This document shows positions 1,671 through 62,836 of a DNA stretch of 64,000 nucleotides, piece after piece. This stretch comes from Candidatus Obscuribacterales bacterium (GTDB taxonomy: Bacteria; Cyanobacteriota; Vampirovibrionia; Obscuribacterales; Obscuribacteraceae). Position 1 is the first letter of the stretch; every line of letters starts with the position of its first letter. The DNA lies in assembly GCA_965228855.1 (NCBI GenBank), contig CBDDIJ010000002.1, positions 192,001 to 256,000 of the forward strand, in the 5' to 3' direction. The notes beneath the pieces are model-generated. The model saw nothing but the letters and a program-made list of their open reading frames with translations. It did not search any database and was not told the origin of the DNA. A program made the translations under genes and the position numbers.

Positions 1671-1724
1671 TTGTCTACGGCTCGTTGCCGCTTTTCGGAA
1701 AATCCGGCATCGAGGGATAGACAA
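1671..1724. repeat. 54-bp dispersed palindromic element, copy 1
   Basis: tt-GTCTA-cggctcg-TTGCC-N16-GGCAT-cgaggga-TAGAC-aa. Confidence 0.85.
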
Positions 1725-2053
1725 ACGGCTGTTTTGGGACCCTCTCGGAAGTTGGAGAAATCTCGAAATCCTCTATAGAAGAGCAGTTTCGGTGAAAGAT
1801 AGATACTGTCTTTTATAGTAGGCAAGATTTAAAAAAAATCCGAGCACGCGGCATACCGAAATTCCCGTTTGTTCAACAGGAAATTGGTATACCGCGTGCC
1901 GGACAGACTGACTCAAATGAATTATGTATGAGGCAGAAGCCAACCAGAATTCGAAGGCGGAATTCTGGTCGGCAGTTCCTGAGGTTTTCTCAGCGGTCAG
2001 TGGTCAAACTATTGCCTTCGTTTGAACCTTAACCGTCGCAGGCGCCGAGGCGC

Positions 2054-2296
2054 TTACTTCGTGGCCGGAGCCGCGGTGTCTTCCTCGCTCTCGCTGACGG
2101 ACAGGCCGACGGTGGCGGCGAGGCTCGTCTTGCGGGTCTTCGTGCCTTCCTTCACCGTCGTGGCGAGGGTGGAGGTCACGGTGACTTCGCGGTTGGAGGC
2201 GTCGCCGAGTTCGACCAGAGCCGCGTCATCGGCGGTCTTGCGGGCATCGGCGAGGCGGGCATCACGGGTGGCGTTCTTGGTGTTGGCGTTGGACAT
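2054..2296 (-). CDS. small hypothetical protein (Ala/Thr-rich)
   Basis: 80-aa ORF with AGGAG RBS and high-GC3 codon bias. Confidence 0.65.
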   Translation of the reverse strand: MSNANTKNATRDARLADARKTADDAALVELGDASNREVTVTSTLATTVKEGTKTRKTSLAATVGLSVSESEEDTAAPATK

Positions 2297-2980
2297 GGTC
2301 CAGTTCTCCTAGTGAGTGTTCAATTTGCGGTTTGAAACAGAACGATTCCGCACTCAATCAACAGATGACGAACGCAAAACCAACAGCCTGTGCCAGTTCA
2401 ACAAACCGATGAAGGTAGGTTGCTACAGTGGCGATAGTCGAAAAGTGACTTTGGCTGGGACTTGCGGACGAAACCTGATGAGAAAGTGAGGAAGAAAGGA
2501 ACGTCCTGAACGTAAAGGTTTCAATCCCTCTATGACAAGCGACCTGAAGACAAATTACCGGCGCGAGCAAAAGCGGCAACCACAGCCGCCGCAAGCGTTT
2601 CCAAGAGGAGGCTCTTTAAGTGACATACATTAATCCGACCAGTACTGATATAGCGCCACTAGCGCAACCTGCAATATCCCTAGACGGAGTTAATCTCCGC
2701 TCGCGCTAACTCTGGCGGCACTTTTCGGCGTTTTCTGTCACCCCGGTCGCAGAAATCGCAACCGGCCGACGCGAGTGGTTTCGTTCAGTTTGAACATAAG
2801 ATTAACTGCGCGAGATTGAGTGCCAGGTCGTCCAACTCATAGGCTTAAACAGCTAATTTGCTTCAACTGTTCAAGAACTCACAAGAAATAAACACCTTCC
2901 GCTGTCACTGAGTTCTCATTTTTAACCACCTCCTTCCTTCCCAATCGGGGAGGACCAGGCTAATTCGCCCAGGAAAAGCC

Positions 2981-5041: not shown

Positions 5042-5188
5042 CTTCCCGCCAGTCGGTCCCTCCCCGGGACCCTCTGGTCTCCCGAATTTGCCTACTATAT
5101 GTTTACGTATCTCCGTAAGCCCGAGAATCGTTACGGTGTCGGTGTTCAGAGTCCTTCAAAACTTAAAAGAACACGAAAATTCCCAGAC

Positions 5189-5206
5189 TTGGCTACGTGG
5201 CTATGA
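5189..5206. repeat. left part of 54-bp element copy 2, split by the IS110 (remainder 6472-6507)
   Basis: Joining 5189-5206 to 6472-6507 restores tt-GGCTA-cgtggct-ATGAC-gcaatttcgaaattcc-GTCAT-cgaggga-TAGCC-aa. Confidence 0.85.
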
Positions 5207-5222
5207 GATAGTGTGTTCGCTG

Positions 5223-6188
5223 TCAACAATGAACGCTTAGATGATTGGGATTAAATGGTGTCTTTGTCCTGTAGATCGCCATCATGATGCGAAGTAGCTT
5301 GCGCATGGCGGCGCACAAGATGACTTTCCTTGGTTTGCACTTCTCTGCCAACTTTGTCGCGAATTTTTGAATGGCAGGGTTTGATCGAACTGCGCTCAGA
5401 GACGCCATGTAGAAAACTTTCCGGAGGCGCTTGCAGCCTTTCTTAGACATCTTCGGACGCCCTCGAACAGAAGTTCCAGACTCGCGCAATTCCGGAGTCA
5501 AGCCGCAGTAGCTCTCGACTTCTCTCAACGACTCGAAGGAATCCAAGCCGGAAATTTCCGTGAGAAACGTGAGTGCCGAGATCAAACCGACTCCAGGGAT
5601 GGTTTGCAGTAAGGCGAGATCGTTCTGAAATTGCGGTTCGGACTTGATCAAGAGGTCTCGAGCCTGTTCCAGCAGCAAAATCTCATTGTTGATGAATTCG
5701 ATTTGCCGCTGAAGCGAGATACTCACAGGTTCGTCGAGCCGACCGGACTCGGTACGATTCACGGTTCTGGTTCGGTCGGTTTTGAGCGCATCAATGTGAC
5801 GCTCAATGTTGCGAATCTTCCGGACCACGTCCGGGAGGGGCGTCCAGGTCTTCGGTTGAATCAGTTTGCAAAACTGTGCGATTACCTCGGCATCAATTGC
5901 GTCCGTCTTTGAACGCTTCAACAGGCTTTTGCCAAAGTTTTTGATCTGAACAGGATTGACGACGCTGACGGCAAAACCTTTGTCGCAGAAGTATTCTGCG
6001 AGTGGCTCCCAGAGCTTTCCAGTGGCCTCCATGCAAATTTGTACTTCGCTTTCGGTGTGCTGATTCAGCCACTTCTCAATTCGCCGAAATCCGCTGTCAG
6101 AGTTGTCAGCGTGCAACTTCCGCCCTCGTTCCGAGAGCAGATAGCAATCCACAGTCTCTTTAGAGATGTCTATCCCAAGTGATATCAC
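5223..6188 (-). CDS. IS110 family transposase / bridge recombinase
   Basis: RuvC-like DEDD residues (GIDISK, CMEATG, KTDAIDA), TIPGVG, and RESGTS with the catalytic Ser; GGAGG RBS. Confidence 0.95.
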   Translation of the reverse strand: MISLGIDISKETVDCYLLSERGRKLHADNSDSGFRRIEKWLNQHTESEVQICMEATGKLWEPLAEYFCDKGFAVSVVNPVQIKNFGKSLLKRSKTDAIDAEVIAQFCKLIQPKTWTPLPDVVRKIRNIERHIDALKTDRTRTVNRTESGRLDEPVSISLQRQIEFINNEILLLEQARDLLIKSEPQFQNDLALLQTIPGVGLISALTFLTEISGLDSFESLREVESYCGLTPELRESGTSVRGRPKMSKKGCKRLRKVFYMASLSAVRSNPAIQKFATKLAEKCKPRKVILCAAMRKLLRIMMAIYRTKTPFNPNHLSVHC

Positions 6189-6224
6189 GATGCGCCTCCA
6201 TTTAGACTTGCCAACCTACACAGG

Positions 6225-6440
6225 ACGCGGATAGAATCTTGTCAGGGCGAGCCTTGTACGCATGCTAAATCGTTCTAGGATTTGCATCTGATAGTGTTCA
6301 GCCTCAGAGGACAAGACAGAAACGGAAGTCCAAACCTCATAGCCTGACTTCGCGGTCATACGCATTTTCCTGGTTTCTTCCGTTTCTCTATCCTCGCGTC
6401 CTCGGATAGCCTTGCCGACAGCAGGACCTGGTGTCAATTG
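6225..6440 (-). ncRNA. predicted bridge RNA in the IS110 left end (ends approximate)
   Basis: Minus-strand order: GAAAATGCGT (6369-6360, left target), GGCTATGAG (6344-6336, right target), ACACTATC (6297-6290, left donor), CGTACAAG (6260-6253, right donor). Confidence 0.8.
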
Positions 6441-6617
6441 ATTGGGTCTGCTGTCAATCTCTAACGTACAACGCAATTTCGAAATTCCGTCATCGAGGGA
6501 TAGCCAAGAACCCACCTCTCGGATCGAATCCGTCTATCAGGTTCCGGCTTCGCGAAATTCCATAATGGCGAAGACTCTGACCAAGTTCAATTGCTACGCA
6601 ACATCCAACCCGCGATC

Positions 6618-10782: not shown

Positions 10783-10807
10783 CGAGCGAGAAATTTCGCC
10801 TGTTCCG

Positions 10808-10898
10808 GAAATTTCTACTAAATTCCAGTCCGAAATTTCTACTATATTCCAGCCCGAAATCCCTACTATAGTCCAGCCCGAAATCTCTACTATATTCC
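10808..10898 (+). repeat. four tandem 24-bp repeats GAAATYYCTACTAWADTCCAGYCC
   Basis: CTACTA at 10815, 10839, 10863, 10887. Confidence 0.9.
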
Positions 10899-10982
10899 CG
10901 CGTATTCGCATGCACCCGAGATCGAAACGCAGACGGCACTTTCGAGACTTCCAATCCAAACACAATAGTCCAAAACCAAGCT

Positions 10983-11036
10983 TTGGCTATGAGGGAACGA
11001 CGAAATTCGTGATTTCCGTCATTCCCTCATAGCCAA
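10983..11036. repeat. 54-bp dispersed element, copy 3
   Basis: tt-GGCTA-tgaggga-ACGAC-N16-GTCAT-tccctca-TAGCC-aa. Confidence 0.85.
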
Positions 11037-11181
11037 ACGTCCGCGAAAAATTAGCAACGCCGCCGCCTATCCTGTCATACTCAGGGTTCTCGCCATTTTA
11101 TAGATACGAAGTCATATAGTAGCAAAGTTTCGAAAGAAAGGTGGTACCAAGATTGATACCACCTTCCGGTGCGCTGTGAAC

Positions 11182-14840: not shown

Positions 14841-14971
14841 CACTCCGAGGCGGTGCAAACCGCCTCATCCCCAGCTCTGCCTACTATATTCCAAAGTATC
14901 TAGTGAACACCCAAAAACCAAGACCAGGTGTGACTTCTCAGCACTTTAGCGTAGAGCGACCCAGTCAAAAT

Positions 14972-15339
14972 ACACCCGCTTGTCTACGGTGCATAGACGG
15001 AATTCGCTAAATCCGTCGCTCTAGCGTAGACAGGCGGCAATTCGATCACTCAGAAAATCCCGGAAAACGCCACCAAATCAACAAACAGAGTCCTGTCTTT
15101 TATAGTAGACAAATCTGTTCTACTATAAACCGAAGTATCTCACAAAACACCAAGAATCAGTACCGACGGCGTTTTAGAACCGCCTGCCGACTTAACTAAC
15201 ACCCGCTTGTCTACGGTGCATAGACGGAATTTGCTAAATCCGTCGCTCTGCCGTAGACAGGCGGCAATTCGATCACTCAGAAAATCCCGAAAAACGCCAC
15301 CAAATCAACAAACAGAGTCCTGTCTTTTATAGTAGACAA
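14972..15339 (+). repeat. 141-bp direct duplication (14972-15112, 15199-15339) carrying 54-bp element copies 4 (14980-15033) and 5 (15207-15260)
   Basis: Near-identical copies, each ending TTTTATAGTAGACAA. Confidence 0.95.
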
Positions 15340-20397: not shown

Positions 20398-20635
20398 GAG
20401 GAACGGCGACATGCACGACGAAGTGCACAAGGCTGGTGATAGCAATCACTTGCCTGTCGGGAGCGAGATGCGATTCGCTGCCCGGCTGAGAAGACGCGAA
20501 GAAACCGGCTAACCATGCCGCTCTCTTCCGCCTTCTCATTCAAAGAACCTCTACTATATGCCATACTACGACTGACGTCTCGGTACCCTTGTGGTTTGGG
20601 CTTCGCCAGACACATCGGCTCTTTCTAGACCCTGC

Positions 20636-20689
20636 GTGTCTATCTGACGATGCCGGATTTCTGAAAATTCGTCATCCTCAGATAGCCAA
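20636..20689. repeat. 54-bp dispersed element, copy 6
   Basis: GTCTA-tctgacg-ATGCC-N16-GTCAT-cctcaga-TAGCC. Confidence 0.85.
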
Positions 20690-20841: not shown

Positions 20842-20895
20842 CCGTCAATGAGGGAGCGACGGAATTTGCTGAATCAGTCGCTCTGAGATTGACAG
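20842..20895. repeat. 54-bp dispersed element, copy 7 (half copy follows at 20915-20945)
   Basis: GTCAA-tgaggga-GCGAC-N16-GTCGC-tctgaga-TTGAC. Confidence 0.8.
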
Positions 20896-21747: not shown

Positions 21748-21801
21748 TTGTCTATCCTGGAATGACGCATTTCGCCGAATTCGTCTATGCACGATAGACA
21801 A
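21748..21801. repeat. 54-bp dispersed element, copy 8
   Basis: tt-GTCTA-tcctgga-ATGAC-N16-GTCTA-tgcacga-TAGAC-aa. Confidence 0.85.
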
Positions 21802-21845
21802 AAAGGCGTCAACGCATTTTCAAAAAACCACAAACCATCACCACA

Positions 21846-22013
21846 CGCCGATCAGGGACCCTAGGCACTACGATACTGTCTAGTAGCGATGGGCAGACCC
21901 TCGCCAGACGCCGATCAGGGAGCCTAGACACTACGATACTGTCTAGTAGTGATTGGCAGACCCTCGCCAGATGCCGATCAGAGAGACTTAGCATCACGAC
22001 ACTGCAAGTAGCC
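21846..22013 (+). repeat. about 2.6 tandem copies of a 63-bp unit containing TCTAGTAG
   Basis: Units start at 21846, 21909, 21972 (YGCCGATCAG...). Confidence 0.85.
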
Positions 22014-26528: not shown

Positions 26529-26743
26529 CCAAGCGGCTCGAAGTGGCGCGAGTCACTTCGAGCTGTGAGGAGTACTGAGGCGAAGCGGTTGAGTTAGCTC
26601 AACCGGAGCCGGGCGACAGGTCTACCAAGACCTGCCGCCTTGGCTTTTTTAAAACTTGCTACTAGCACATACAGTATCTTCTCCTTCCATAGAACCAGTC
26701 CCCGGGCGGCATTCCGTCGGTCGAGACGGACAGCTGGTGATCA

Positions 26744-26797
26744 GCGTCTACGAGGCGTTGACGCATTTTCAAAAAGTCGTCTATCAGTGATAGACAG
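26744..26797. repeat. 54-bp dispersed element, copy 9
   Basis: GTCTA-cgaggcg-TTGAC-N16-GTCTA-tcagtga-TAGAC. Confidence 0.8.
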
Positions 26798-26874
26798 TTT
26801 GAGTTTGAGAATCTGCACGCTAGCCGCAATTAATTAAAGGTTTGTTCCAGTGTCCCAAGCAGAGTATTGGCATT

Positions 26875-27030
26875 GCGTTGCAAATCAGATTGCAGGTTTC
26901 AAGCCAACAGCTGCAAACCAATTTGCAGTCACTCAAATTTTGACGCGAAACCCGCCGTTCCTGGTCTCCTGACCGGGGCGTTGCAAATCAGATTGCTAAA
27001 TCCACACCAAAAGCTGCAAACCAATTTGCG
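26875..27030. repeat. two copies of a paired 16-bp palindrome TGCAAAY-N2-RWTTGCA
   Basis: Palindromes at 26879, 26912, 26982, 27015; 33-bp spacing within each pair. Confidence 0.75.
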
Positions 27031-27061
27031 AGCAAGATTGAGAGAGCGCGACGGACGATGC

Positions 27062-27115
27062 TTGTCTACGAGAGAATGACGGAATTCGCCAAATCCGTCG
27101 CTCTCTCGTAGACAC
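27062..27115. repeat. 54-bp dispersed element, copy 10
   Basis: tt-GTCTA-cgagaga-ATGAC-N16-GTCGC-tctctcg-TAGAC. Confidence 0.85.
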
Positions 27116-27125
27116 CGCATACGAG

Positions 27126-27285
27126 CGGCAAGCACAAGCGACCCAAAATCCGCTCAAGGCAAAGCATTACGGACACCATATATACGCTCTCATATAGTAG
27201 TAATTCTTGTCGGCAAGTACAAGCGGCCCAAAATCCTTTCAAGGCAAGGCATTACGGACAACACTTATACGCTCTCATATAGTAG
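27126..27285 (+). repeat. two ~75-bp direct repeats (period ~85 bp), each ending CTCTCATATAGTAG
   Basis: 27126-27200 and 27210-27285. Confidence 0.85.
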
Positions 27286-30960: not shown

Positions 30961-31014
30961 TCGTCAATGAGACAGCGACGGAATCCGCTAAATCCGTCGC
31001 TCTGGGATTGACAG
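30961..31014. repeat. 54-bp dispersed element, copy 11
   Basis: GTCAA-tgagaca-GCGAC-N16-GTCGC-tctggga-TTGAC. Confidence 0.8.
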
Positions 31015-33118: not shown

Positions 33119-33172
33119 CTGTCTATGAGAGAATGCCGAATTTTCAGGAATCCGTCATAGTGGCGTAGCCAA
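33119..33172. repeat. 54-bp dispersed element, copy 12
   Basis: GTCTA-tgagaga-ATGCC-N16-GTCAT-agtggcg-TAGCC. Confidence 0.85.
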
Positions 33173-33707
33173 GGAGAGTCGCCGGGAAGAACGTAGGCCC
33201 ATGAGGCTCTCCCCAACAAGGCTTTCGGGCCGGAACTCTACGAAAGAATATAGTAGCAAGATTCGTCAGGACGCTAGCTTCGCTAGCTGAGAGATCGTTC
33301 AGTTTGAGCTTTATATACCAAGAACTCATAAATCCGTTTCGGCTCTAAACCTTGAATCTAAAAGCTCCGCAGCTATGGAGCGTTTGAACCTGAGTCTTAG
33401 AGCCTGTTCACGCTTAGGTACATATCATTTACCGCGCCTGAAATTGATCACTTGGAAACAGTAGCTTTCGGTGTTCACTTTTCTGTTTCCGTTTTCTGAC
33501 CGTCTGATTTGACCTAACCCGCCCAGTTCGAGCCGCGTTCGTTCGCACACCATCGGTGTAGCGAGCTATGTGCCGCCTCGTCATCCAACGGCGAACAGTC
33601 TCGAACGGTTTGTAACTCGAAGTCGGCTGTTTAGCGACTTCGAACTTCAACGCTCGTATGCCGACGCGCAATGCGCCGGCTGTGTAGCTCTATCTTCAGG
33701 AGACACC

Positions 33708-34478: not shown

Positions 34479-34610
34479 CCGTAAAAGCTTGAAGTTTGAA
34501 ACAGCATCGACGCGCCACCGTCTGCGGTGCACGCTGATGCGCACGTTCTCAGGATCTTTTCCACAACCTTCCGGCGACGCAGACCTTCGCCGGTTAACGG
34601 AGAACTAAAC

Positions 34611-36134: not shown

Positions 36135-36292
36135 TTTTCGAGCAGCACCGTATATGACACCAGAAGCGAAGCGGCGACAGCCGGTTTCAGATCGAAACAG
36201 CGCGAGCGGTTTCGTTCCAGAACCTGGCTGTTAGCCGATTCGTGATGGTTCCGGTGACTGTTTCAATCACCCTCCTACAGGAGATTTCGAAT

Positions 36293-37414: not shown

Positions 37415-37552
37415 GAGCGCGCTTTTTCCGGACAGAATCGCTGCAGGCGGTTTCGGTTTAAACCGCTCATACGCGACTGCAGATACCGCGCCATTCGCGT
37501 GGAACCTGCAGAGGACCTGTCTCTTAACCAGATAAAGATAAGGAGAAATTCC

Positions 37553-50300: not shown

Positions 50301-52496
50301 TGCTCCTCCGGAGATGTTTCTACCGGCAACAATTGTTACGCCACCGCCTGTAGTGACATAACTTCCCGCCAACTCCAGATCCGTCTGCGCCGTGATCGTG
50401 ATCGTGCCATCGGCATCGATGTCTGAAACACTTGCAAACGCCGCTGATTGCACCAGTGCGTTAGCTCCGGCAAAAACCGTTCCAGTGACATTAACATCCT
50501 GTGCGTTCGGCGTTGTCGTTCCTGGAGCAAATGAACCTTGAACGATAGCGCCCGTCGTGTCGTTTATCAAAACAGGACCATTCACCACGACAGGTTGGAA
50601 GCTGCTTATCAGCACATTGCCGGTCCCATCATTTGTGCCGACACCCTGCGTATCAACATCTGCAACGGTCACACCGCCGCCACCAATGATGGTGACATTG
50701 CCATTATTGCCACCGGCACCGCCGAGGGCCGAGATTGTTGCCGAATCCAGATCTATATTGCCGGAATTGGCACTGCTGCCTGCGAAAGCTACGATAGTGA
50801 TATCACCGGCATTGGTAGTTCCATCTGAAATGAAATCCAGCAAAAGTCCGTCACCGTTGATAGATCCGCCACCGGCCGAAGCCCCGCTTATAGAATTGTT
50901 CGCACCAGCGCTTGTCCAATTAGAGCCGGCCACCAGCGTAATGGTTCCACCGGCCCCACTGTCGTTATGGGTATCAATCGTCGCATCCAGATCGAAGTTG
51001 ATATCGCCACGCGCCAGAATCGCGACCGGACCGCCACCGGTAGTGATGTCGTTCATCAAGGTAAAATTGCCGGTCGACTTGAACGTCGGATCTCCACTCG
51101 CCTGCATGCTGTTGACGATCAAGTTCTCAGTGTCAGCAAGCACGCTAGCCGTTCCCGCACGCCCCGTTATCGCACCGGTGAGCTCGCCGACATTCACATT
51201 CAGAGCGCCATCGCCAGAATAAAGATTCAGATCCTTAGACAACCAATCGCCACCGGTCAGAGTCGTATTAGCCTTGGCTGTATTGTTGATATCGCCAACG
51301 GTAATCGCACCATTCAGCGCCTGAATAGAGCCGCCCGCATTGTTTACAACAATTGAACCAGTGGCATCGTACGCACCGGCAGTAATACCAATATTGTTCT
51401 GAGCAGAAATTGTTCCACTATTCGAAAGCGTCGCTGTTTCAATCGAAACGTCTCTGGCCGCCGATATTGAAGCGACTGAGTGATTTCCGCTAAGGTTTGA
51501 AACCGTTTTAGCCGACAGAGTCAGGTTGCCCGAACTCGAGATTTCACCTTTATTGACCAGACTGTCGTCGGCTCGCAGCTTCAGATCGACCGACGACTGC
51601 AAATTGTCGTATTCGGGAAACATCGATGAATCGGTCACCGACGAAATCAAACCGCCCGCGTTATTTGTGAGATTGCGCACCGCGATGGACGCTTTGTCTG
51701 CACCAGGCTTGTTGGAAAGCGCGTAGATAGCGCCATTGTTTACGAGGTCACCCTTGAGGTTGAAGTCAGAGCGATTGCTGAAGTTTCCGACCACCTTAAT
51801 GGCTTCCGGAATCACGAGTCCGGAAACGTTCATACTGCTGCCATTCGTAAGCGAATCGAGTGAAAGCTGCCCGCCTGAGGCTCTTCCGGAATTGTCGAGT
51901 TGCAGCGTCTGCCCGTCGCCACCGAGAACTTGAATAATCGATGCGTATTCCGCTGCTGTTACGCGCGAACCGGCTGAAAATGTTTTCTCACCATTGCCAA
52001 CGCTTAAAGTGACGCTATCCGCGCTGCCAAACAGTTCCTGTCCAAGCTGGATGCTTCGTTCGTTGGAACCAAAATTTAATTCGACCGCAGCGTTTACGTT
52101 CCGGACTTTGCCGGTTTCCGTTATCTGCCAGGTTTTCGACTCGTTGCGTCGAGTGATGTTTGCGTCACGATTAACATGACCGCCACCGCGAACTCGAATC
52201 ATCGGCGCGAGATTGTCTTGAGGAGCGGTAATTGGAAGTATCGGCTGAGGAAGTGTGATACTCGGGTTAGAGCGCACTCGATTTTCCAATCGCTCAGCTC
52301 TGTTTTGAAGCCGCTCCGCGCGATTCTCCAATCGCAACTGGCGGAGAGCCGACCGGTCAATATCCATTCCAGCCAGTCTGTCAGCGCGATTTGCATACGC
52401 CGGTCCAATTGAGAGAAGGAACGAAAGAGAAACACATGGAGTCACAAAAGAGCTCCAAGTAAGGTTTTCGAATGTTTTGTCAGGCTTACCGTTCAT
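44358..52496 (-). CDS. very large secreted beta-helical adhesin/haemagglutinin-like protein
   Basis: 2712 aa, signal-peptide-like N-terminus (PAYA), G/T/N/S-rich repeats such as GxGGxITxxAG. Confidence 0.8.
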   Translation of the reverse strand: MNGKPDKTFENLTWSSFVTPCVSLSFLLSIGPAYANRADRLAGMDIDRSALRQLRLENRAERLQNRAERLENRVRSNPSITLPQPILPITAPQDNLAPMIRVRGGGHVNRDANITRRNESKTWQITETGKVRNVNAAVELNFGSNERSIQLGQELFGSADSVTLSVGNGEKTFSAGSRVTAAEYASIIQVLGGDGQTLQLDNSGRASGGQLSLDSLTNGSSMNVSGLVIPEAIKVVGNFSNRSDFNLKGDLVNNGAIYALSNKPGADKASIAVRNLTNNAGGLISSVTDSSMFPEYDNLQSSVDLKLRADDSLVNKGEISSSGNLTLSAKTVSNLSGNHSVASISAARDVSIETATLSNSGTISAQNNIGITAGAYDATGSIVVNNAGGSIQALNGAITVGDINNTAKANTTLTGGDWLSKDLNLYSGDGALNVNVGELTGAITGRAGTASVLADTENLIVNSMQASGDPTFKSTGNFTLMNDITTGGGPVAILARGDINFDLDATIDTHNDSGAGGTITLVAGSNWTSAGANNSISGASAGGGSINGDGLLLDFISDGTTNAGDITIVAFAGSSANSGNIDLDSATISALGGAGGNNGNVTIIGGGGVTVADVDTQGVGTNDGTGNVLISSFQPVVVNGPVLINDTTGAIVQGSFAPGTTTPNAQDVNVTGTVFAGANALVQSAAFASVSDIDADGTITITAQTDLELAGSYVTTGGGVTIVAGRNISGGAPTQTDIDTSSASGDGGNVFVIAGANFTQDANNITITGASAIGGFIYLDNDDPGVGNSLGIVDTSSSAANGSGGDVTFIAYRGSNIGGGYVATDFEDTVITTGGNGTGSNGDISFIAGQNNGFYGIGIRGVFDTTGASTVGTGNFYAATAQPLGNVVISKNTQSITSGTFRGGAITNGLAFIDEITVGQGATATILYGGEFGDLAQDITAPGGILVVAGGDIYSRNFGTVFSAASNIGDGGNITMIAGATFTQSGTNVTITGATTTGGDLNLALNGFNEVRTNSNAANGAGGDITLVAFDAAGKDSGNIYIQNNATVNASGNGTGANGNIIMVAGSDTDGIVADISFGLTGAAGTGLISFNNSTPNSGVVLSTATAGVTSGDFRGGALAAGDIFVQNLTVRGGDVELISGGAVRALNVDVSALAVGDGGSVTVRTGSNETLDIGAATGSNAITSILVSAGTTSGNGGTIDIQADGSGGLNVAAIGSVSATEGNGGNLRLVALTGDLVIANTVVLSANAGTATAASHNGGIVELYGRNLTSSGFDVSASSTGGGTGGVAEIVVTGGGNLSVGTGANDVTLVGNFSLVRLGTIGGGDVTVTNTGALTTSSLIDIDAETGDVFLQGALSAPTVTIAGQTITSSVTISGSTALTIDAAASFTNTGLTTGGVVSINGGNITVAGVTGTTSVDIDGGTTGLVLLQGAVNSPVTTVAGQTVTNNSTLTGSSTLEINTPTFITTGATNGGGVTINSSDVTVTNTGSITATVSLDIDAGATGDVLLQGAVSGPVTSITGQTVSNSATLSGSTSLTIEAESYTASANATGGIISISGGDVTVDSGAVVNGSTSIDIDAGATGDVVNSGTITSPSTSIVAQSVTNSGTITGTTLLDIDTASYINSGNTNGGVINLHSLAGGSLALSGAGGTFTSTVETQIGSDVNISLSGSQTFNGNVDLTAISTPTSSITLQAGSTYIGNNQVRITTYTYTELPVSSFIGNPKIVNTNFYNIINTSGDVVLPANLIFTGQSLAIIASGNITSTGATLIDLSAAGDAGSLTLLAGFDSTPGTMGQVRVVGPNTVTGVSTTGGNIDLGNVTINLTSSGANGGSLVAAASAGTASDGTVSLGSVSTTGAVGVSGDVQIIGQGGVVVGAIDTNGAAAVDGGVVVRAAQPLIVGTLVYQDGSAISGSISNGPLSAGSITVSSIDAGNRSIEIQTLGSATDVLTVGGDLSAHSIDLVSGFGTIDLRAISGIVANVDGSGNGGQIDVSGNSVLVNTTVDNPFVLNADATTGDGGSVSYFTNDQTATYLGAVPKAKKGSVFFDVSAAGGTGVNAAGGQIDFETGGNLSVLASTTDASVNGTGNANGASYTFKAGSTAPKGGTLAIIGDLDASGIGTGIDGSINLTSNSKKAFTLGSSKAPKNGVQGMLLGDGITVTNNGGGITIASSSAVQAADLSLNAGLKGAIVGSKGVVVTADSIVFNSDTGAIGKKPISVDTDSLEFHTNSKVNLASVGTATLTVQASDAVDGASLTASGSVILNDVIVDDGDISVITGGANSRLSVVSAAHLLATNGGILLQNTQVDTGDIQLGASSIIETAGKGDDVTIAIGALPRKPIAGTQPANVNTDIQGKGEIFWGPDNGIIANGAISNIVAINKAVIFNNGSSDVASKKIILDGGVTVIADPPSRGAAAVSLASIQSPSLSSESAVASEGGQTMSVPSVTAEGYLDNQAYQTSQQFKTSQTSQPTNTALLSPLDSFAGAVANSSIVLTTETMNATAGSGTAVGADLRLAPGGEEVAQVNAIELISDNLPGAKAVGESHSLKSGRALIVASKDMVVETPDARVSIARGAVVLVVAGGHGTSVYDMHDVKRAGVRVNFGSQSVSLAPGRHATVCARRAGSYSAVNPMESIMHRDVNEVATADGVGAFTSEFSVHSAVQSVSSLRSIFASSHPECAKLSSRMMKTSAILMHLSGSQEPFQQYLAPRVAAYR

Positions 52497-52820: not shown

Positions 52821-53897
52821 ATGCCGGACAAAAAACCAATTTTGTTTTCCACCGCCAGCTACGAATACCTGAAGAAGGCGATGATGGCGGGCGACCGGTT
52901 CGTCGACGGCTTGATCGCGCGCGGACAATCGAAAGACGGGCCGGTTTACGAAGACAAACCTTTCCCGGACGGCGAACGCTATCACCGCATCATGACCGAG
53001 GTCGCGGACCATGAAGTCATACTTCTCGGTGGCACAATCGACGATCGAGAAACAATGGAACTTCTGGATCTGGGGCAGGCGATTGTTGAGAAAGGCGCGC
53101 TGAGTCTGCTTTTGCTTGTTCCCTACTTCGGATATTCAACGATGGAACGCCAGGTGCTGCCGGGCGAAGTTGTAAAAGCGAAGAATCGCGCCAGACTGAT
53201 CTCGGCGATACCGCCGGCAGCATTCAGAAATCGGATTTTGCTCCTCGATTTGCACTCGGAAGGAATTCCTCACTACTTCGAAAACAGCCTTGTCGCCTAC
53301 CATCTGTACGCTCGCGACCTGATCATCGACGCCATTGTCGACGTTGTAAAAGAATGGCAGTCATCGGCACTGGTAGCGTCCGCGGTGGCAGACGGCAAAG
53401 GTTCTAAACCCTATGAGCGAGGCGGACGGTCCGACGAGAACTGGCTGGACGACGCCCACTTCACCCTTGCATCCACGGACGCGGGTCGGGCTAAATGGGT
53501 AGAATCACTCGCTCAAGACATGTCTGCACGCGGCATCCCCGTACACCCTGCGTTTATCATCAAACGCCGCACCTCCGGGGCTGAAACAGAAGTCGCCGAC
53601 ATCTCCGCAGACGTCGACGGAAAGTTTGTAATCATTTACGACGACATGGTGCGCACCGGCGGAAGCGCAATCAAGGCAGCCAAAGCCTATTTGAATAAAG
53701 GTGCCAGGGCAATCGCGTTGGTTTGCACCCACGGCGTCTTGCCAAAGGATTCGAAACAGCGCTTGAAAGACTCAGGCTGTTTCTTCAAAATCGTAGTCAC
53801 CGACAGCCATCCCCGGGCGGTCGAACTGGAAGATGACTTCGTAAAAGTCGTGTCAATCGCCAGCCTGCTCGAAGAAAGCATCTTCAACCATCATTGA
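52821..53897 (+). CDS. prs: ribose-phosphate pyrophosphokinase-like protein, copy 2
   Basis: FPDGE, PYFGYSTMER, DLHSEG, DDMVRTGGS; clear paralog of 36293-37414. Confidence 0.85.
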   Translation: MPDKKPILFSTASYEYLKKAMMAGDRFVDGLIARGQSKDGPVYEDKPFPDGERYHRIMTEVADHEVILLGGTIDDRETMELLDLGQAIVEKGALSLLLLVPYFGYSTMERQVLPGEVVKAKNRARLISAIPPAAFRNRILLLDLHSEGIPHYFENSLVAYHLYARDLIIDAIVDVVKEWQSSALVASAVADGKGSKPYERGGRSDENWLDDAHFTLASTDAGRAKWVESLAQDMSARGIPVHPAFIIKRRTSGAETEVADISADVDGKFVIIYDDMVRTGGSAIKAAKAYLNKGARAIALVCTHGVLPKDSKQRLKDSGCFFKIVVTDSHPRAVELEDDFVKVVSIASLLEESIFNHH

Positions 53898-53954
53898 AGA
53901 GACATCAGAAAACTGATCGTATGATATGTTCATAACAAAATTAGAAGGCAACTT

Positions 53955-56864
53955 ATGAAATCGGTGTCGTTGAAAAACAAACTTAAAAATCACGGATTTG
54001 TTCGCGTTGCAACAGCGACTCCGAAGCTCAAGGTCGGCAATGTGACCTACAACTGTGCCGAAATTATCGAGCTCCTGAAGCAGGCGGAAAATGAGCGCGC
54101 CGCTGTGGTTTTCTTTCCCGAGCTATCATTGACCGGCTACACATGCGCAGACCTCTTCCACAACTTTGAGCTTTTGCAAGGTGCGCTTGATGGGTTGGAA
54201 ACCGTCCGAGCGGCCACCCTCAACGATTTCTCCGGTATCGCGTTTGTAGGCGTGCCGCTTCTCATAGACAACCTTGTATTCAACTGCGCTGTGGCGCTCA
54301 GCAATGGGAAAATTCTTGGTGCTGTTCCGAAAAGCTATCTGCCAAACGCAGGGGAGTTCTATGAGTGGCGCTGGTTCTCACCGGCAGAGTGCTCGGTAAA
54401 TGACTCGATTTTGCTGGGTAGTGAAACAGTTCCGTTCGGAACCGACATTTTGTTCTCCGCAGACAACTTTCCCGGGCTGGTGATCGGGCTTGACGTGTGC
54501 GAGGACGGTTGGGCAGTCGACCCTCCGTCGTTGAAGCATGCCATCATGGGCGCCACCATTATCGGAAATCTGTCAGCAAGTCCAGAGTGGGTGAGCAAGC
54601 AAGAATACAGAAGAACTCTGTTCACGATGCGCTCAGCGACACTGCTTTCGGCATACGCCTACACTTCGTCCGGCGTTCATGAATCCACTTCCGACCTGGT
54701 GTTCAGCGGACATCAGTTAATTTGCGAAAACGGCTCTCTTATCGCTCAGTGCAAACCCTTCTCCAGAGACTCAAAGTTGACTGTCGCCGACATCGACATC
54801 GAACGACTCCTGGCGGATCGAATGAGAATCAAAAACTTCGCCGACGCCAGACGACGAACGAAAGAACGACTCAAGTATCGCAAAGCTCCATTCAAAGCCA
54901 ATTTTGTGGAAGAGCCTTCAACCTTGATGCGCAAAGTCGATCCGCGTCCATTTGTGCCGAGAGATTCATTCGCGTTGAACGAACGTTGCGATGATATCTT
55001 CAACATCCAGGTAGCCGGGCTGGCGAAGCGGCTTGAGCAGCTCGGCAAAAATCCAAGCATCGTGCTCGGAATTTCCGGTGGTTTGGATTCGACTCTTGCA
55101 GTTCTCGTCGCATGCAGAACAATGGACCTGCTCGGACTGGACCGCACTAACATCCGCGGATTTACAATGCCGGGATTTGGTACGACGGAGCGCACAAAGA
55201 ACAATGCTCTGGCGCTCATGAAGGAGCTTGGAATCAAGGTCGAGCCAGTTGCCGACATCAGAGCCGCATGCCTGGAAGAGATGCGGCAGATGAAACATTC
55301 TCCGTTTGCGCAAATAAATATTGATGAGATTTACAGCCAAGCCGCAAAGAAAGTAGAGAAATCCAAAGAGTTCACGATCGACGCTATCCAAACGGCGGCA
55401 CAAGAACTCTTTTCCGATGCTTTGAGTAATCTTCCTGCAAACAGTCAGGACCTGGTTTTTGAAAACATTCAGGCCCGAATGCGCACGAAGATATTGATGG
55501 ACTCCGGATTCGTACTTGGCACCGGAGACCTCTCAGAGCTCGCCCTGGGCTGGTGTACGTACAACGCCGACCACATGAGCATGTATAACGTCAACTCCGG
55601 AGTCCCGAAAACTCTTGTACGTTTTCTCGTAAAGTGGGCCGCAGAGCACCTCTTCGAAGGAGAGACCAGACGCATTCTTATCGATATTTTCGATACTGAG
55701 ATTTCTCCGGAGCTCCTGCCTGCAGGCAAGGACGGCACCATTGCTCAAAAAACCGAAAGCTTGATCGGTCCATACGAACTTCACGATTTCTTTTTGTACA
55801 ACATGCTGCGCTTCGGTTTCAGTCCAGAAAAAATTCTATTTCTGGCGAAACATGCAAAATTTCAGGGAGAGTACGACGAGAGCGAAACTCGCGTATGGCT
55901 CAAAATTTTCATTCAGCGCTTCTTCCGAAATCAGTTCAAGCGCAACTGTTTACCCGACGGTCCCAAGGTCGGCTCTATCTGCCTTTCGCCGCGAGGTGAC
56001 TGGAGAATGCCGAGCGATGCCGATGAAACGCTCTGGTTACGTTGGGCTGAAAAAGATACTCTACCAATCGGTGCGAGTGAGACGAATACGCCGTTCAGCT
56101 CCCGTTCCACAACATCCAACTCGAATGGCAAAGGGTCGAAGAAACTCTTAAGAGTATTGCTACGCATTGATGAGCAGAATGACTTCATGCCCGGGGGGGC
56201 GCTCGCCGTCGCTGATGGCGACCAGATCGTAGACGTCTCCAACAGACTTGCCCTGAGCGGTTATTATGATCTAGTCGTGGATAGCATGGACGATCATCCT
56301 GTGGACCACGGATCATTTGCATCTCAGCATGACGGCAAGAAACCGCTGACAGACCGAGTTTCACTACACGGCATCGATCAGCAGCTCTGGCCGGACCATT
56401 GCGTCTCCGGAACACAAGGCGCTGAATTTCATCCGAAACTAGACCGCTCAATGGTCGCCATGACCGTCAAAAAGGGACAGGACAAGCGTGTCGACAGCTA
56501 CAGCGCATTCTATGACAACGGTCGCCACGCCAACGTAGGCAACAAGAAGCAAAACCAGTTCCTGGGACAATCCACTGGATTGGCTGATTATCTGCGACAG
56601 TGCGCCGAAGAGCGCAAAGCAACTGCAATCCAAATCGACATCGTCGGTCTGGCTCTTCCCTTCTGCGTGACATACAGCGCGAAGGATGCACGAGAGGAAA
56701 TGTATAAAGGCAGACCATTTGATGTGCGCGTAATTGCCGACGGCGTCAAGGCTATCGAACTGCAAGACGGCGATTTTGAGCGGTCGCTAGCGGACCTGAA
56801 AAAATCAGATATTGAAATTATCACAAGCAAAGACGTACTTGCCGAGCTCACAGCGAAACGCTGA
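53955..56864 (+). CDS. nadE: glutamine-dependent NAD synthetase fused to nicotinamidase (NadE-PncA), copy 2
   Basis: FPEL, PKSYLPN, VCED, GISGGLDST, ENIQAR, GTGDLSE, LSPRGDWRMPSD; PncA IDEQNDF, WPDHC, DSYSAF, FCV. Confidence 0.92.
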   Translation: MKSVSLKNKLKNHGFVRVATATPKLKVGNVTYNCAEIIELLKQAENERAAVVFFPELSLTGYTCADLFHNFELLQGALDGLETVRAATLNDFSGIAFVGVPLLIDNLVFNCAVALSNGKILGAVPKSYLPNAGEFYEWRWFSPAECSVNDSILLGSETVPFGTDILFSADNFPGLVIGLDVCEDGWAVDPPSLKHAIMGATIIGNLSASPEWVSKQEYRRTLFTMRSATLLSAYAYTSSGVHESTSDLVFSGHQLICENGSLIAQCKPFSRDSKLTVADIDIERLLADRMRIKNFADARRRTKERLKYRKAPFKANFVEEPSTLMRKVDPRPFVPRDSFALNERCDDIFNIQVAGLAKRLEQLGKNPSIVLGISGGLDSTLAVLVACRTMDLLGLDRTNIRGFTMPGFGTTERTKNNALALMKELGIKVEPVADIRAACLEEMRQMKHSPFAQINIDEIYSQAAKKVEKSKEFTIDAIQTAAQELFSDALSNLPANSQDLVFENIQARMRTKILMDSGFVLGTGDLSELALGWCTYNADHMSMYNVNSGVPKTLVRFLVKWAAEHLFEGETRRILIDIFDTEISPELLPAGKDGTIAQKTESLIGPYELHDFFLYNMLRFGFSPEKILFLAKHAKFQGEYDESETRVWLKIFIQRFFRNQFKRNCLPDGPKVGSICLSPRGDWRMPSDADETLWLRWAEKDTLPIGASETNTPFSSRSTTSNSNGKGSKKLLRVLLRIDEQNDFMPGGALAVADGDQIVDVSNRLALSGYYDLVVDSMDDHPVDHGSFASQHDGKKPLTDRVSLHGIDQQLWPDHCVSGTQGAEFHPKLDRSMVAMTVKKGQDKRVDSYSAFYDNGRHANVGNKKQNQFLGQSTGLADYLRQCAEERKATAIQIDIVGLALPFCVTYSAKDAREEMYKGRPFDVRVIADGVKAIELQDGDFERSLADLKKSDIEIITSKDVLAELTAKR

Positions 56865-57387: not shown

Positions 57388-57612
57388 ATGAAGAACTGCA
57401 TCCGTTGCCGCAAAGAGATCCCCGCCGAGCGCGTGGAGGCCCTGCCGGAAACCGAGCTGTGCATCAAGTGCAGCGAGGCGGTGGGCGGCGATTTCATCCT
57501 GGTAGCGCACAACGAGCGCACCAGCAAACCGGGCAGCATGAAGCACAACTACGGCGGCGTGTCCGTCAAGTTGGTGCGTCGGCACATCGCCCCGCTGCCT
57601 CCCGAGAACTAA
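57388..57612 (+). CDS. TraR/DksA-type C4 zinc-finger small protein
   Basis: CIRCRKEIPAERVEALPETELCIKC; GGAG RBS. Confidence 0.8.
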   Translation: MKNCIRCRKEIPAERVEALPETELCIKCSEAVGGDFILVAHNERTSKPGSMKHNYGGVSVKLVRRHIAPLPPEN

Positions 57613-57780
57613 ACAGTGCTCGGGCGGTGGCGCCCTGTTTTCGCAAAGTCGCCAGGCGAGCAGCACGCCTGGCGACTTTGCACCCAGCCCATTTGCTACT
57701 ATCTAATATCGTGCTCGTCAAGTCCCCAATGACTTGTCCGTAGAGGCTTTGCGAGACTTCCCTCTCCTAACGAATCCAAT

Positions 57781-57834
57781 TTGTCTATCGTACGATGCCG
57801 GAATTTCGAAATTCCGGCATTCCAGGATAGACAA
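57781..57834. repeat. 54-bp dispersed element, copy 13
   Basis: tt-GTCTA-tcgtacg-ATGCC-ggaatttcgaaattcc-GGCAT-tccagga-TAGAC-aa. Confidence 0.9.
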
Positions 57835-57977
57835 AATCGTCCTTTCAAAAACACGAATTTCCAGTATCCCTCTGGCAAAGCCTCTTTCGAAGCCACGTCG
57901 ATATTAGGTTCTATAGTAGCAAAATGGGGGAAAGACGGAGGCGAAAAGTCGCCTCCGTCCGTTTCAGTCGTCGCTAA

Positions 57978-62100: not shown

Positions 62101-62663
62101 AAGATGGCACCATTCTCTACGCGGAAGATTCAAAAAACCTGCGAATCACAACCGACATGCAGAATATCGCCGATCTCGCCAACTATTATTATTCGAGGCA
62201 CCAATCTCAATATCCGAAAAAACGCAAAGACTTCAGCGAAATGGGTCCTGACGTAAAGTGGGAAAACCCGCTCGGGCAGTCAATTAAACCAATCATCAAG
62301 GCGCATGAGTTTGAGAAATATGATGGTGATGTTGCGTTCTCCGAGAATCTAGACAAGTATCGCAAAGGTAAGAAAATCTTCGAACAGGACGGCAAAACAG
62401 GCGCACCGCCCGGGCTCATAGAATGCCTGAGCATCGTGCCTTTCGACGAATACCACACCGAAGACGGTGTTTCATTCATGGTGCGCGCGTACGATTCGAA
62501 CGGCAAATTCCTGACGTCCAGCATTCCGGGCGAAGTGTTCGTTATCTGCCAACGCAACGGCGTCAAACATACCGTGGTCAAAGCAGAAGATATCAAATCC
62601 CCCGTCAAGGACAGCAGCAAAACCACAGCCTATTTCAAGTTGATGTCCGGAAGTAAGAACTAG
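59133..62663 (+). CDS. Pro-rich, TPR-like, single-pass membrane protein (start uncertain: CTG 59133 or TTG 59229)
   Basis: Long Pro-rich N-terminus, TPR-like helices (LHKLADCYY...YEEALAHYE), one TM segment. Confidence 0.8.
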   Translation: MSSDNTDKKKTGAASNEGKDASGLSFSIPPDDLIFGEGEEKADVSIKPITPKEDRSGAGWSYKRDASEPPVSGSSSGPAPVPVPPPALFGGPTPPQDAAQSPRRSATNLPGAGAPPPPPPPPSFNWAAPTATPSPSPDKTATSGLGGLNLPDLENDLPALAGEPPAFLATPPSFGLSTPATTDGAPPGFGEPPSFGATTSDSSSDPAQARTPLSKRPPARGRIHSDIHINEHHLEQPAAPSSDAGLSPFAPQTSPGGPSPFAPSAPAQLTPGPAQSPFAPPASSEPAAVSPVTAPPAATPAPPQPPPPAAPALSSPPEPALPPPPAPPVPPPIPPSVSSQPLPPPIPPPPEPKAPVKQEQRPRTEQKPPAQPQQRPQLSSQQRPTTSPRSQIDDKALPKPKAFGQIMPTSKKGPDQPLRPSDPGRHSPPQPGPGKNIFTVIGENDTVSPPEPKRVPFPDDSIMPGSGMQAEPPNWQNSQSSGTYRSGITPESPSAPQTGFDNLPTDDWKLDDLDQRSEPTGTSSSPQSPFAPPEVAQSSPFAPETGSGEERRTVIPFPDESAVFMPPQGAAPLGTPGSATGFGEEQDSNFGYSQSGSDYAQPDFGDAQRDQSSPDSEFSEPGFEQEPAPTAAEQENTGNKGVPNSKQFREACLASSTADSAMANDNFKVAMPLYKKAHKQFKKADATDSQEFGNCLHKLADCYYHTEEYEEALAHYEEFIEWSKHRSTQPDVLTVVVNLKRARTFQKLDRVDDCDRAFHETVTMANRALPVSHPLFTVVYNSYISMLKFSGNAADKLTQVEEQFAERMMTSSRTVAIPEDLQEELSAWTDLEKADQDRLERNRQLKLSRHMFQNERSRPGQMVHSITGSGAFKTIVIVVVSLLLIGSISVMGFGAYMLLDQSGDKAAESKDLADPALGAYVGKVYKSADGLKTLTIKKDGTATFVFGNDSATFAAAAGAPKEGIAEDLRKMMFGKNNYIVEEVQKGFRDKDGTILYAEDSKNLRITTDMQNIADLANYYYSRHQSQYPKKRKDFSEMGPDVKWENPLGQSIKPIIKAHEFEKYDGDVAFSENLDKYRKGKKIFEQDGKTGAPPGLIECLSIVPFDEYHTEDGVSFMVRAYDSNGKFLTSSIPGEVFVICQRNGVKHTVVKAEDIKSPVKDSSKTTAYFKLMSGSKN

Positions 62664-62782
62664 AACCGGGAGCACTTTTGCCTACGCCACAATGCCGACC
62701 TGACCATTCCTACTATACTCGACAGGACTTACAACTAGACAGGACGAGGGTTTCGGGCTTTTCGCTCGCACTGGGAGCACTT

Positions 62783-62836
62783 TTGTCTACGCCACAATGC
62801 CGGATTTCGGCAAAAGCGTCATTGCCACGTAGCCAA
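62783..62836. repeat. 54-bp dispersed element, copy 14
   Basis: tt-GTCTA-cgccaca-ATGCC-N16-GTCAT-tgccacg-TAGCC-aa; half copy at ~62678. Confidence 0.85.

Follow-up and report, generated by a model that had tools for sequence, protein, structure and literature searches.

A 54-bp repeat and its larger unit

We have studied a repeated element in the genome G000, from an uncultured non-photosynthetic relative of cyanobacteria belonging to the Obscuribacterales. The window, i.e., the whole stretch of 64,000 nucleotides that was analyzed, contains 14 copies at the starts given by the initial annotation, of which 13 are intact 54-mers and one is split by an IS110 element. The 54-mer comprises two 17-bp dyad boxes (GKC-N11-GMC) placed 33 bp apart. 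It had been taken to be the element as such; this holds for the core, but the core is embedded in a larger unit that also includes arms and phased TAGTAG boxes.

Full units are found at 10887..11122 (box 10887-10905, core 10983-11036, box 11104-11122; core-to-box distances 90 and 80 bp), at 57696..57919 (box 57696-57714, core 57781-57834, box 57901-57919; 79 and 79 bp) and at 62710..62932 (box 62710-62728, core 62783-62836, box 62914-62932; 67 and 90 bp). At 1671..1724 there is a type-A core with a TAGTAG box on its right at 91 bp (1803-1821) and a weaker one on its left at 69 bp (1596-1614). Type-A cores with a box on one side lie at 20551..20689 (box 20551-20569, core 20636-20689), 21748..21886 (core 21748-21801, box 21868-21886), 26659..26797 (box 26659-26677, core 26744-26797) and 27062..27200 (core 27062-27115, box 27182-27200), all at a distance of 79 bp, and at 33119..33256 (core 33119-33172, box 33238-33256), where the distance is 78 bp. 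A tandem pair of type-A cores (14980-15033 and 15207-15260) occupies 14881..15335, with boxes at 14881-14899, 15090-15108, 15120-15138 and 15317-15335. Type-B cores are located at 20842..20895 and 30961..31014. This type, of which the first is an example, has GTCAA outer and GCGAC inner half-sites and no TAGTAG box, and elsewhere in the genome it forms 73-bp tandem arrays. The interrupted core (5189..6507) is divided into 5189-5206 and 6472-6507 by an IS110 element on the minus strand (5207..6471, transposase 5223-6188) that is inserted in the inner GAC half-site; a TAGTAG box starts at 5092, 91 bp to the left. All seven IS110 copies in G000, including this one, are inserted in the 54-bp repeat.

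A profile constructed from the 13 intact window copies gave 210 copies genome-wide, and a base-shuffled G000 gave no match above 14 bits, the lower profile threshold. Only 3 of the 210 lie inside called genes (genes were called by a hexamer-scored ORF finder, for which strand errors are possible in places). The fixed geometry reported for the 54-mers applies in the window and to cores in general; genome-wide there are, however, two length variants (+1 and −2) among 25 orphan half-sites, plus one further shortened copy. An entire box-arm-core-arm-box unit is common to C2:1120498 and C5:1318272, within unrelated flanks. In 26 orthologous pairs the cores differ by 4.8% compared with 8.0% for the flanks. 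We rejected a MITE of a DDE transposon, as no target-site duplication was seen: direct repeats of 2-9 bp are not in excess at the 210 core ends or at the unit ends of 58 two-armed copies. No clean empty-versus-filled site was found for the core, the 54-bp element has no match in Rfam at gathering thresholds, and the element pattern had no match in viral contigs.

The N7 spacers had been described as variable and often noncomplementary. This must be revised: they conform to the pattern YSNNNSR in the profile, and their complementarity is slightly above that of permuted partners (3.41 compared with 2.86 ± 0.12 pairs of 7), being complete in 8 of 180 distinct type-A cores. Over the whole core, the arms form 17.7 of 27 possible pairs, compared with 16.6 when partners are permuted.

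Concentration around the origin and phasing to the TAGTAG box

The cores are concentrated around the origin, with 174 of the 210 falling within about 1 Mb (13% of the genome) spanning dnaA. Most lie behind the 3′ ends of genes, beyond the terminators, at a median of 167 bp from the stop codon. The share of gaps that contain a core is highest between convergent genes (51 of 86) and lower between tandem (64 of 328) and divergent genes (11 of 127). Most are 68, 79, 91 or 102 bp from a TAGTAG box, distances that indicate helical phasing. The box itself is found family-wide behind terminators, and at 40 TAGTAG sites in congeners no conserved core was found 79 or 91 bp away. Inspection by eye, with a sigma-70 −10 element and DnaA trios in mind, showed no −35 consensus, and congeners do not conserve the first T of the box. 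Genes adjoining 3′-facing arms have a higher GC3 (median 0.77 compared with 0.60).

Could this be an ordinary REP/BIME family that has lost its RAYT and works as a hairpin at mRNA 3′ ends? The extragenic location, the enrichment in convergent gaps and the tandem arrays are as such a family would have, and IS110 targeting is known for REPs according to one report (PMC11208160). Yet pairing within the core scarcely exceeds that of permuted partners, the cores lie beyond the terminators, Rfam offers no match, and the RAYT/Y1 transposase model PF01797 has no match in either G000 or its sister species G007. This explanation would also leave unexplained the association with the gene described below, and we regard it as highly unlikely. 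REP hairpins have a conserved 5′ GTAG-type tetranucleotide; no GTAG invariant at the stem foot is present in the core profile. The earlier preference for two tandem dyad protein-binding sites over an RNA hairpin or classical REP is supported by the weak arm pairing, the lack of a Y1 transposase in G000 and G007, and an XRE-HTH partner gene.

Gene order across the elements

The initial annotation went on to suggest that the elements recall tyrosine-recombinase sites, at which blocks of one to six genes could be shuffled in an integron-like system. The block size does not hold, since the interval 33119-57781 contains 12 called genes, and genome-wide the blocks between cores are mixed-strand segments of 0-30 genes. 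Gene order was compared with that of G007, which is 95% identical to G000 (genome completeness 91% and 95%, respectively), and of G002, a congener without the element. The comparison with G007 covered 480 kb and found the two genomes colinear. Conserved synteny across the elements had been named beforehand as grounds against the cassette idea, and the outcome went that way. The flanks of 48 of 52 G000 core clusters could be mapped in G007, and all 48 still have a core there, which indicates that movement is rare at 5% divergence. The backbone gene order of G002 is largely that of G000 without any element, and congeners have no core at slots that are occupied in G000. Whether synteny breakpoints fall at the elements had been put forward as a check; gene adjacency between G000 and G002 is kept at 6 of 10 element-bearing gaps compared with 28 of 33 large element-free gaps, which is not a significant difference (p = 0.18). 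Contigs from strains run through several elements with the order unchanged. In contigs of four sequencing runs the joints at the repeats are all short-sided and therefore carry no information on this point. The two cores on either side of an arm-less segment resemble each other no more than randomly paired cores do, and no linkage was seen between arm states at segment ends (p = 0.15).

Nor did the enzymes in the genome favor recombination. The integron integrase model TIGR02249 gave at best 149 bits against a cut-off of 265 among the 11 longer of 17 PF00589 matches. The dense region contains two Xer-like genes, which were rejected as partners: their catalytic residues are altered (R to K, H to Q) and the lysine hairpin is missing, they are present in all seven congeners, among them genomes that have no element, and TGATAC-type sites accompany their intact relatives. 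Tyrosine-recombinase core sites have a 7-7-7-like box geometry that the present boxes resemble, and 5 of 6 genes in the dense region that are relocated in G000 relative to G002 or G005 adjoin a core, as do a few genes found only in G007. Set against the conserved gene order, the dissimilar flanking cores and the element-independent Xer-like genes, these points leave shufflable cassettes a very improbable account. Integron attC sites are polar, have GTTRRRY ends and lie behind co-oriented single genes. The present elements are like attC arrays in being many imperfect palindromes of about 55 bp between genes, targeted by IS110-family elements; unlike them, they have no IntI and no strand polarity, and they separate multi-gene blocks in both orientations whose order is conserved. 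Neither core polarity nor leading-strand bias was stable, and a GTT end motif is absent from the core profile.

A PLD-HTH gene bracketed by cores, and its relatives

About 88 kb to the left of the window start lies a candidate partner gene (C2:103074-103847 of G000, equivalent to L098:17075-17848, plus strand), with one core about 170 bp upstream and another 37 bp past its stop codon. Of the 778 genes called in the dense region, 6 are bracketed by cores at a distance of 250 bp or less. The gene encodes a protein of 257 amino acids in which an HKD (PLD-type) nuclease domain is fused, after a CxxC linker, to a C-terminal HipB-like XRE-HTH. The HxKxxxxD and GSxN motifs and the PLD fold are present, with a match to PF13091 that falls below the cut-off. 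Across 72 homologues with a mean column identity of 31%, conservation of H107, K109, D114 and GSxN is 90% or higher. The structure model matches Nuc, NucT and Zucchini, with TrmBL2 also among the fold matches, and the C terminus matches HipB and restriction-modification controller (C) proteins. All PADLOC matches were partial and at the level of domains (MkoB/MkoC, control proteins). The family is diverse, with at least 261 clusters at 50% identity (E up to 1e-30), and no homologue was found in 72,556 plasmid records.

A co-occurring recombinase, RAYT or DNA-binding gene had been proposed as a further check; neither an integrase nor a RAYT emerged, but the PLD-HTH subfamily did. It forms a 100/100 clade restricted to G000 and G007 among 107 genomes, and the core pattern has 207 matches in G000, 189 in G007, 2 in G006 and none in 101 genomes. 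The exception is G006, where two cores occur and the best PLD-HTH homologue is 35% identical (in an assembly of 740 contigs).

G000 contains five PLD-HTH paralogues, several of the paralogues occurring in just one of G000 and G007. Four of the five have no adjoining core and are flanked by other repeats; the paralogue at C2:918k has lost its HKD motif. One G007 paralogue (54% identical) is located between 4 and 6 type-B cores, where the same slot in G000 has one core and no gene, and at two further slots there is a PLD-HTH gene in G000 and cores in G007. Over the orthologous stretch, this one genome pair has 37 type-B cores in G007 and 6 in G000.

We also examined homologous genes in other lineages, using a double-box score that was designed after examples had been seen. 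A score of at least 22 was obtained at 12 of 30 homologous loci (10 of 28 excluding our own two), compared with 1 of 40 control genes; at a score of at least 24 the numbers were 8 of 30 and 0 of 40. The other 18 of the 28 loci scored below 22. The palindromes have the same geometry, with boxes 31-34 bp apart, and a sequence different from the G000 core. Four patterns, drawn from gene-adjacent copies, were tested in their own lineages; all four are dispersed and lineage-specific, and a reversed-pattern control gave none. The G013 palindrome has 65 copies, that of G010 has 13, that of G041 has 5, and in one genus (5 genomes) there are 1-5 copies. Three proteins of this last genus form a 100/100 clade and share the same QQT[IV]SxLE helix.

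A probable partnership of repeat and enzyme

Core copies bracket the PLD-HTH gene, and relatives pair versions of the gene with their own same-shaped repeats; the enzyme thus likely binds and spreads the repeats. Our best reading is a partnership like that of REP and RAYT with a different enzyme, a PLD nuclease reading double-stranded operators. On the basis of these sequence comparisons, we put at about 0.6 the probability that the protein binds the boxes of this lineage-specific repeat and spreads it, as a RAYT does REPs. Dimers of the HipB/C-protein-like HTH would read each box as double-stranded DNA, and two single-HKD domains would form one nuclease site, cutting via a covalent His-DNA intermediate, with BfiI and Nuc as models. 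For the PLD nuclease BfiI, a covalent intermediate and DNA transesterification have been described (PMC2475615; PMC2853115). By repair or strand transfer the core, on occasion together with its arms or with the gene, would be copied into slots that lie behind terminators; the TAGTAG box, which is older, likely marks the target there or stabilizes it. Movement today would be slow, with tandem arrays growing and shrinking and IS110 elements parasitizing the core.

According to one account of REPIN-RAYT systems (bioRxiv 10.1101/2021.07.10.451892), hundreds of short extragenic palindromes occur per genome, the enzyme gene is flanked by its own repeat, and repeat and enzyme are lineage-specific, duplicate slowly, are absent from plasmids and are targeted by IS110. 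The present system is like that account in each of these respects, with its 210 extragenic copies. It differs in that the enzyme is an HKD/PLD nuclease with an XRE-HTH instead of an HUH Y1 transposase, the repeat resembles two double-stranded operators with weak hairpin pairing, and the cores cluster in the origin domain and keep phase with a box on the terminator side. The RAYT, moreover, is single-copy, at a fixed locus and vertically inherited, whereas a genome has several PLD-HTH paralogues, and sister species differ in them. The single HKD, the GSxN motif and the fold are those of Nuc, NucT, Zucchini and BfiI; the C-terminal HTH after the CxxC linker is not, and in the literature we did not find those enzymes described with dispersed cognate repeats. 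HipB and C-protein operators are paired dyads near their own gene. The XRE-HTH is of the same kind, with paired dyad operators near the PLD-HTH gene itself; unlike those operators, the boxes are also present just past the stop codon and in tandem arrays, and there are some 200 occurrences, most of them at the 3′ ends of genes.

Alternatively, the gene and the two cores that flank it might form a selfish homing-type cassette, solo cores being footprints left, like solo LTRs, when the gene is lost by core-core recombination. The slots that differ between G000 and G007 and the numerous, diverse paralogues fit this scheme. It would need about 200 cycles of insertion and loss with one gene left, however; the arms at the G007 slot differ from those in G000, so that simple excision is not indicated; and a gene-less full unit has been copied between distant loci, while plasmids have no homologue. 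We judge the homing cassette improbable.

The protein might also bind the boxes without moving them, as a regulator or chromatin protein whose PLD fold serves as a ligand domain or a scaffold, TrmBL2 being an example. In that case the sites would give the origin domain its organization or insulation, for instance by acting as barriers behind highly transcribed genes. The origin-proximal concentration in both G000 and G041, the lower divergence of the cores, the helical phasing, the GC3 of adjoining genes and the fold match to TrmBL2 are in keeping with this, and neither a chromosomal ParB nor parS was found in G000. Against it, the catalytic residues are conserved in divergent homologues, copy number varies from 1-5 to 210 between lineages with lineage-specific sequences, congeners lack cores at the same slots, and paralogues come and go between sister species. 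We consider pure binding unlikely, if less so than the cassette.

To our knowledge, outside REP/RAYT the mode of multiplication of most bacterial dispersed repeats is unknown. If the partnership of repeat and enzyme is correct, loci with a palindrome present a readable code, each HTH variant lying beside its own pair of 15-19-bp boxes at fixed spacing, and one 257-amino acid protein with a 54-bp oligonucleotide makes binding, cutting and spreading testable. More tentatively, and with considerable doubt, PLD-HTH proteins could be site-specific DNA strand transferases of a new class, in which phosphohistidine chemistry, in BfiI known just as a side reaction, copies a double-operator repeat into TAGTAG-marked terminator slots, the hundreds of protein-bound sites giving the origin megabase its own architecture. 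Should they move DNA, PLD chemistry would join the known transposase chemistries, and the proteins would offer a small nuclease scaffold that nature itself has retargeted.

The origin concentration and helical phasing pose a separate question on chromosome organization in the Obscuribacterales. No link to TAGTAG was found for the G013 palindrome. The five G041 copies all lie within 0.4 Mb of the G041 dnaA, and TAGTAG occurs at 41-69 nt in three of the four solo copies, with TAGTAA in the fourth.

Copies of the 54-bp core

All fourteen start positions assigned to a 54-bp element in the initial annotation were borne out (14/14), with 13 copies intact and one split by an IS110 element. Using a position-weight profile we found 210 copies in the 8.2-Mb assembly of the genome that holds the window (G000), and zero in the base-shuffled genome. 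The consensus of this core is TT-G[T/G]C-W-A-YSNNNSR-NN-G[A/C]C-RVWWTT-N4 plus its mirror image, i.e., two 17-bp dyads lying 33 bp apart, centre to centre. The N7 spacers are variable, as had been stated, but they are not free, being constrained to YSNNNSR.

The element makes a poor hairpin. It forms 17.7 of 27 pairs, compared with 16.6 when partners are permuted, and its spacers have a small real excess of complementarity (3.41 of 7, against 2.86 ± 0.12 on permutation). Such poor pairing, together with a search for a Y1 transposase that found none, makes it very improbable that these are plain REPs. One property is common to the two: all seven IS110 copies in G000, of two types, are inserted in a GAC half-site of the element, and IS110 elements likewise insert in REPs (PMC11208160; bioRxiv 10.64898/2026.03.19.712850). 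Rfam gave zero matches for the element.

The cores are concentrated around the origin. The region C2:77 kb-1.125 Mb, 13% of the assembly, contains 174 of the 210, and spans dnaA (C2:793 kb) and the GC-skew switch. Relative to the rest of the chromosome, C2:77000-1125000 has higher GC and GC3 and lower coding density, with longer gaps between genes and few genes for tRNA. Nearly all copies are intergenic, the exceptions being 3 of 210 genome-wide that fall inside ORFs by our own gene calls; on these calls elements occupy 51/86 convergent, 64/328 tandem and 11/127 divergent gaps. Elsewhere, 21 tRNA genes form an array on one strand in <3.5 kb (C3:724518-727973). No chromosomal ParB was found in G000 (8.2 Mb, 95% complete), the single PF02195 match lying in a long ORF on contig C4, and the parS motif had no good match.

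A loose core pattern was applied to 107 genomes of the order. It matched 207 times in G000, 189 times in the sister species G007, twice in the congener G006 and not at all in 101 genomes; three further genomes had 1-2 unlike-looking matches each. All 25 metagenome loci found with the element map to G000, at 74-96% identity, and the viral contigs searched had none. A contig labelled as an Acidobacteria MAG (L042, L043) carries the element and is 84-96% identical to G000:C2:562-567 kb; probably this is Obscuribacterales DNA placed in the wrong bin.

TAGTAG boxes and gene order

In sequence read away from the core, TATAGTAG is ~95-fold enriched. A box of the form WWAC[G/T]-N8-TAGTAG occupies 237 of the 370 sides of 185 type-A cores, 177 of which have at least one. 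The 25 type-B cores (GTCAA outer and GCGAC inner half-sites), which form 73-bp arrays, have a box on 3/50 sides. Core-box distances peak at 68, 79, 91 and 102 bp, with 231 of the 233 distances of 60-110 bp inside four windows that make up 19/51 positions and were chosen after the histogram was seen. The sole common feature of the arms between core and box is phased AAA and TTT tracts, and the box is placed just past terminator-like hairpins.

The congener G002 has no cores, and there the box gave 18 matches at the expected offset compared with 0-5 at others (455 kb). Judged by such sequence comparison, the TAGTAG box predates the core, because it occurs in congeners without the core. Little or no box-offset peak was seen in 4.3 Mb of G000 examined beyond the origin region. 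In genome G012, 8/10 box matches lie ≤0.45 Mb from dnaA; the reversed-pattern control exceeds this count, so clustering alone is noted. The ~120-bp repeat of congener G001 (L024:12788-12913) has two copies adjoining TAGTAG boxes, and G006 has its own 49-bp double-box palindrome (L033:7530-7578).

The loci C2:1120498 and C5:1318272, whose flanks are unrelated, have an entire box-arm-core-arm-box unit in common. At one site between two terminators, G000 has a different repeat and a sister population has the unit. Orthologous cores diverge by 4.8% per site and their flanks by 8.0% (26 pairs; 32/52 flanks alignable without gaps).

The proposal that the elements delimit shufflable cassettes is contradicted by synteny. 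Of 480 kb compared, 458 kb of G007 aligns with G000 at 94.7% with order unchanged, and another 400 kb is also colinear. Both flanks of 48/52 core clusters could be mapped in G007, which keeps the core at 48/48, the differences being mostly in tandem copy number. Backbone order is preserved in G002 over the contigs fetched, and contigs from four other sequencing runs traverse several cores in order. Gene adjacency in G002 is retained in 6/10 element-bearing vs 28/33 large element-free gaps (p = 0.18). Cores bordering arm-less segments were no more similar than random pairs, and neither target-site duplication nor an integron integrase was found. Five of six dense-region genes located elsewhere in G002/G005 do adjoin a core in G000, some of them perhaps paralogues; attC-like shuffling of gene blocks is nevertheless highly unlikely.

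A PLD-HTH gene beside the repeat

Loci differing between G000 and G007 led us to a family of proteins of 250-310 aa, with a PLD (HKD) domain N-terminal and an XRE-HTH C-terminal (Pfam matches below cut-off). G000 has five paralogues, all within C2:67-1043 kb. The gene at C2:103074-103847 is bracketed by a core ~170 bp upstream and another 37 bp past its stop codon, an arrangement shared by 6/778 genes in the dense region. In G007 this gene has an orthologue and also a paralogue of 54% identity, the latter flanked by 4 and 6 type-B cores where the G000 slot has one core and no gene; type-B cores over the matching stretch number 37 in G007 and 6 in G000. That cores are footprints left by a homing cassette seems improbable. 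The protein of C2:103074-103847 and those of the G007 orthologue and paralogue make up a 100/100 clade limited, among the 107 genomes, to the element-rich G000 and G007. The other four G000 paralogues have flanking repeats of different kinds, and one has lost the HKD motif. A second repeat family, of period ~102 bp, lies between two cores at window 26871-27035; it forms 9 clusters in G000, one directly upstream of the paralogue at C2:1043 kb.

Homologues occur in 41/107 genomes of the order (some matches being PLD parts of longer proteins), in 0/300 other genomes of the phylum and in zero plasmid records; 261 clusters match at E up to 1e-30. Across 72 members, the HKD and GSxN motifs and a CxxC linker show ≥90% conservation. 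The predicted structure (pLDDT 84.7) matches the folds of PLD3, NucT, Zucchini, Nuc and TrmBL2; matches to the HTH are HipB, C-proteins and phage repressors. Sequence look-ups returned nothing resembling element or protein, and the literature searched (mainly freely accessible main texts) held no account of these repeats or a PLD-HTH repeat partner.

We consider it very probable that gene and repeat are partners, and from the sequences we put at about 0.6 the probability that the PLD-HTH enzyme spreads the repeat. A protein that binds only, in an architectural or regulatory role, is a less likely explanation. For spreading by the enzyme, HTH dimers would bind two boxes on one helix face, and single-HKD domains would pair into one active site, as in BfiI (PMC2853115). 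DNA would be cut via a covalent intermediate, resolvable by a DNA hydroxyl (PMC2475615), and the core copied by repair or transfer into slots behind terminators; origin confinement would follow from the location of boxes and genes. The system would work like REPIN-RAYT (bioRxiv 10.1101/2021.07.10.451892), yet it is not a member, having several mobile PLD-HTH paralogues and neither HUH enzyme nor hairpin signature.

The pairing in relatives, and other genes

At 30 PLD-HTH homologous loci, sequences were scored generically for a pair of dyad boxes flanking an A/T-rich centre. The score reached ≥22 at 12/30 (10/28 without the G000/G007 pair) compared with 1/40 random genes, and ≥24 at 8/30 compared with 0/40. 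Centre-to-centre spacing of the boxes is 31-34 bp, with several palindromes beginning 7-115 bp past the stop codon. The four checked for dispersal were all multi-copy and lineage-specific (reversed-pattern control 0). That of G013 has 65 copies, some forming 70-72-bp arrays (1/5 genomes), with no TAGTAG link found; that of G010 has 13 copies (1/107 genomes); that of G041 has 5 copies, all ≤0.4 Mb from dnaA (1/5 genomes), 3/4 solo copies lying 41-69 nt from TAGTAG. A TACC box pair has 1-5 copies in 5/107 genomes, all of one genus, whose three sampled PLD-HTH proteins form one clade with a recognition helix in common. This recurrence is consistent with gene-repeat co-evolution; kinship also gives shared traits.

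Two Xer-like tyrosine recombinase genes lie in the origin region, at G000:C2:369775-370713 (L084:5776-6714) and G000:C2:923144-924055 (L082:6145-7056), the second 83-84% identical across the genus. Both proteins lack the lysine hairpin and have R-to-K and H-to-Q substitutions at catalytic residues; both genes are kept throughout the genus and occur in some further genera too. Intact relatives have a TnpI-like core and direct-repeat sites; the altered pair are possibly domesticated DNA-binding proteins.

Within the window, the minus-strand ORF at 44358-52496 (2712 aa) has zero Pfam matches. Two paralogous NAD-synthesis-like gene sets (33708-40414 and 52821-56864) encode a PRPP synthetase-like protein and an NAD synthase/nitrilase/isochorismatase fusion. 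In G001 the set corresponding to 52821-56864 is inverted.
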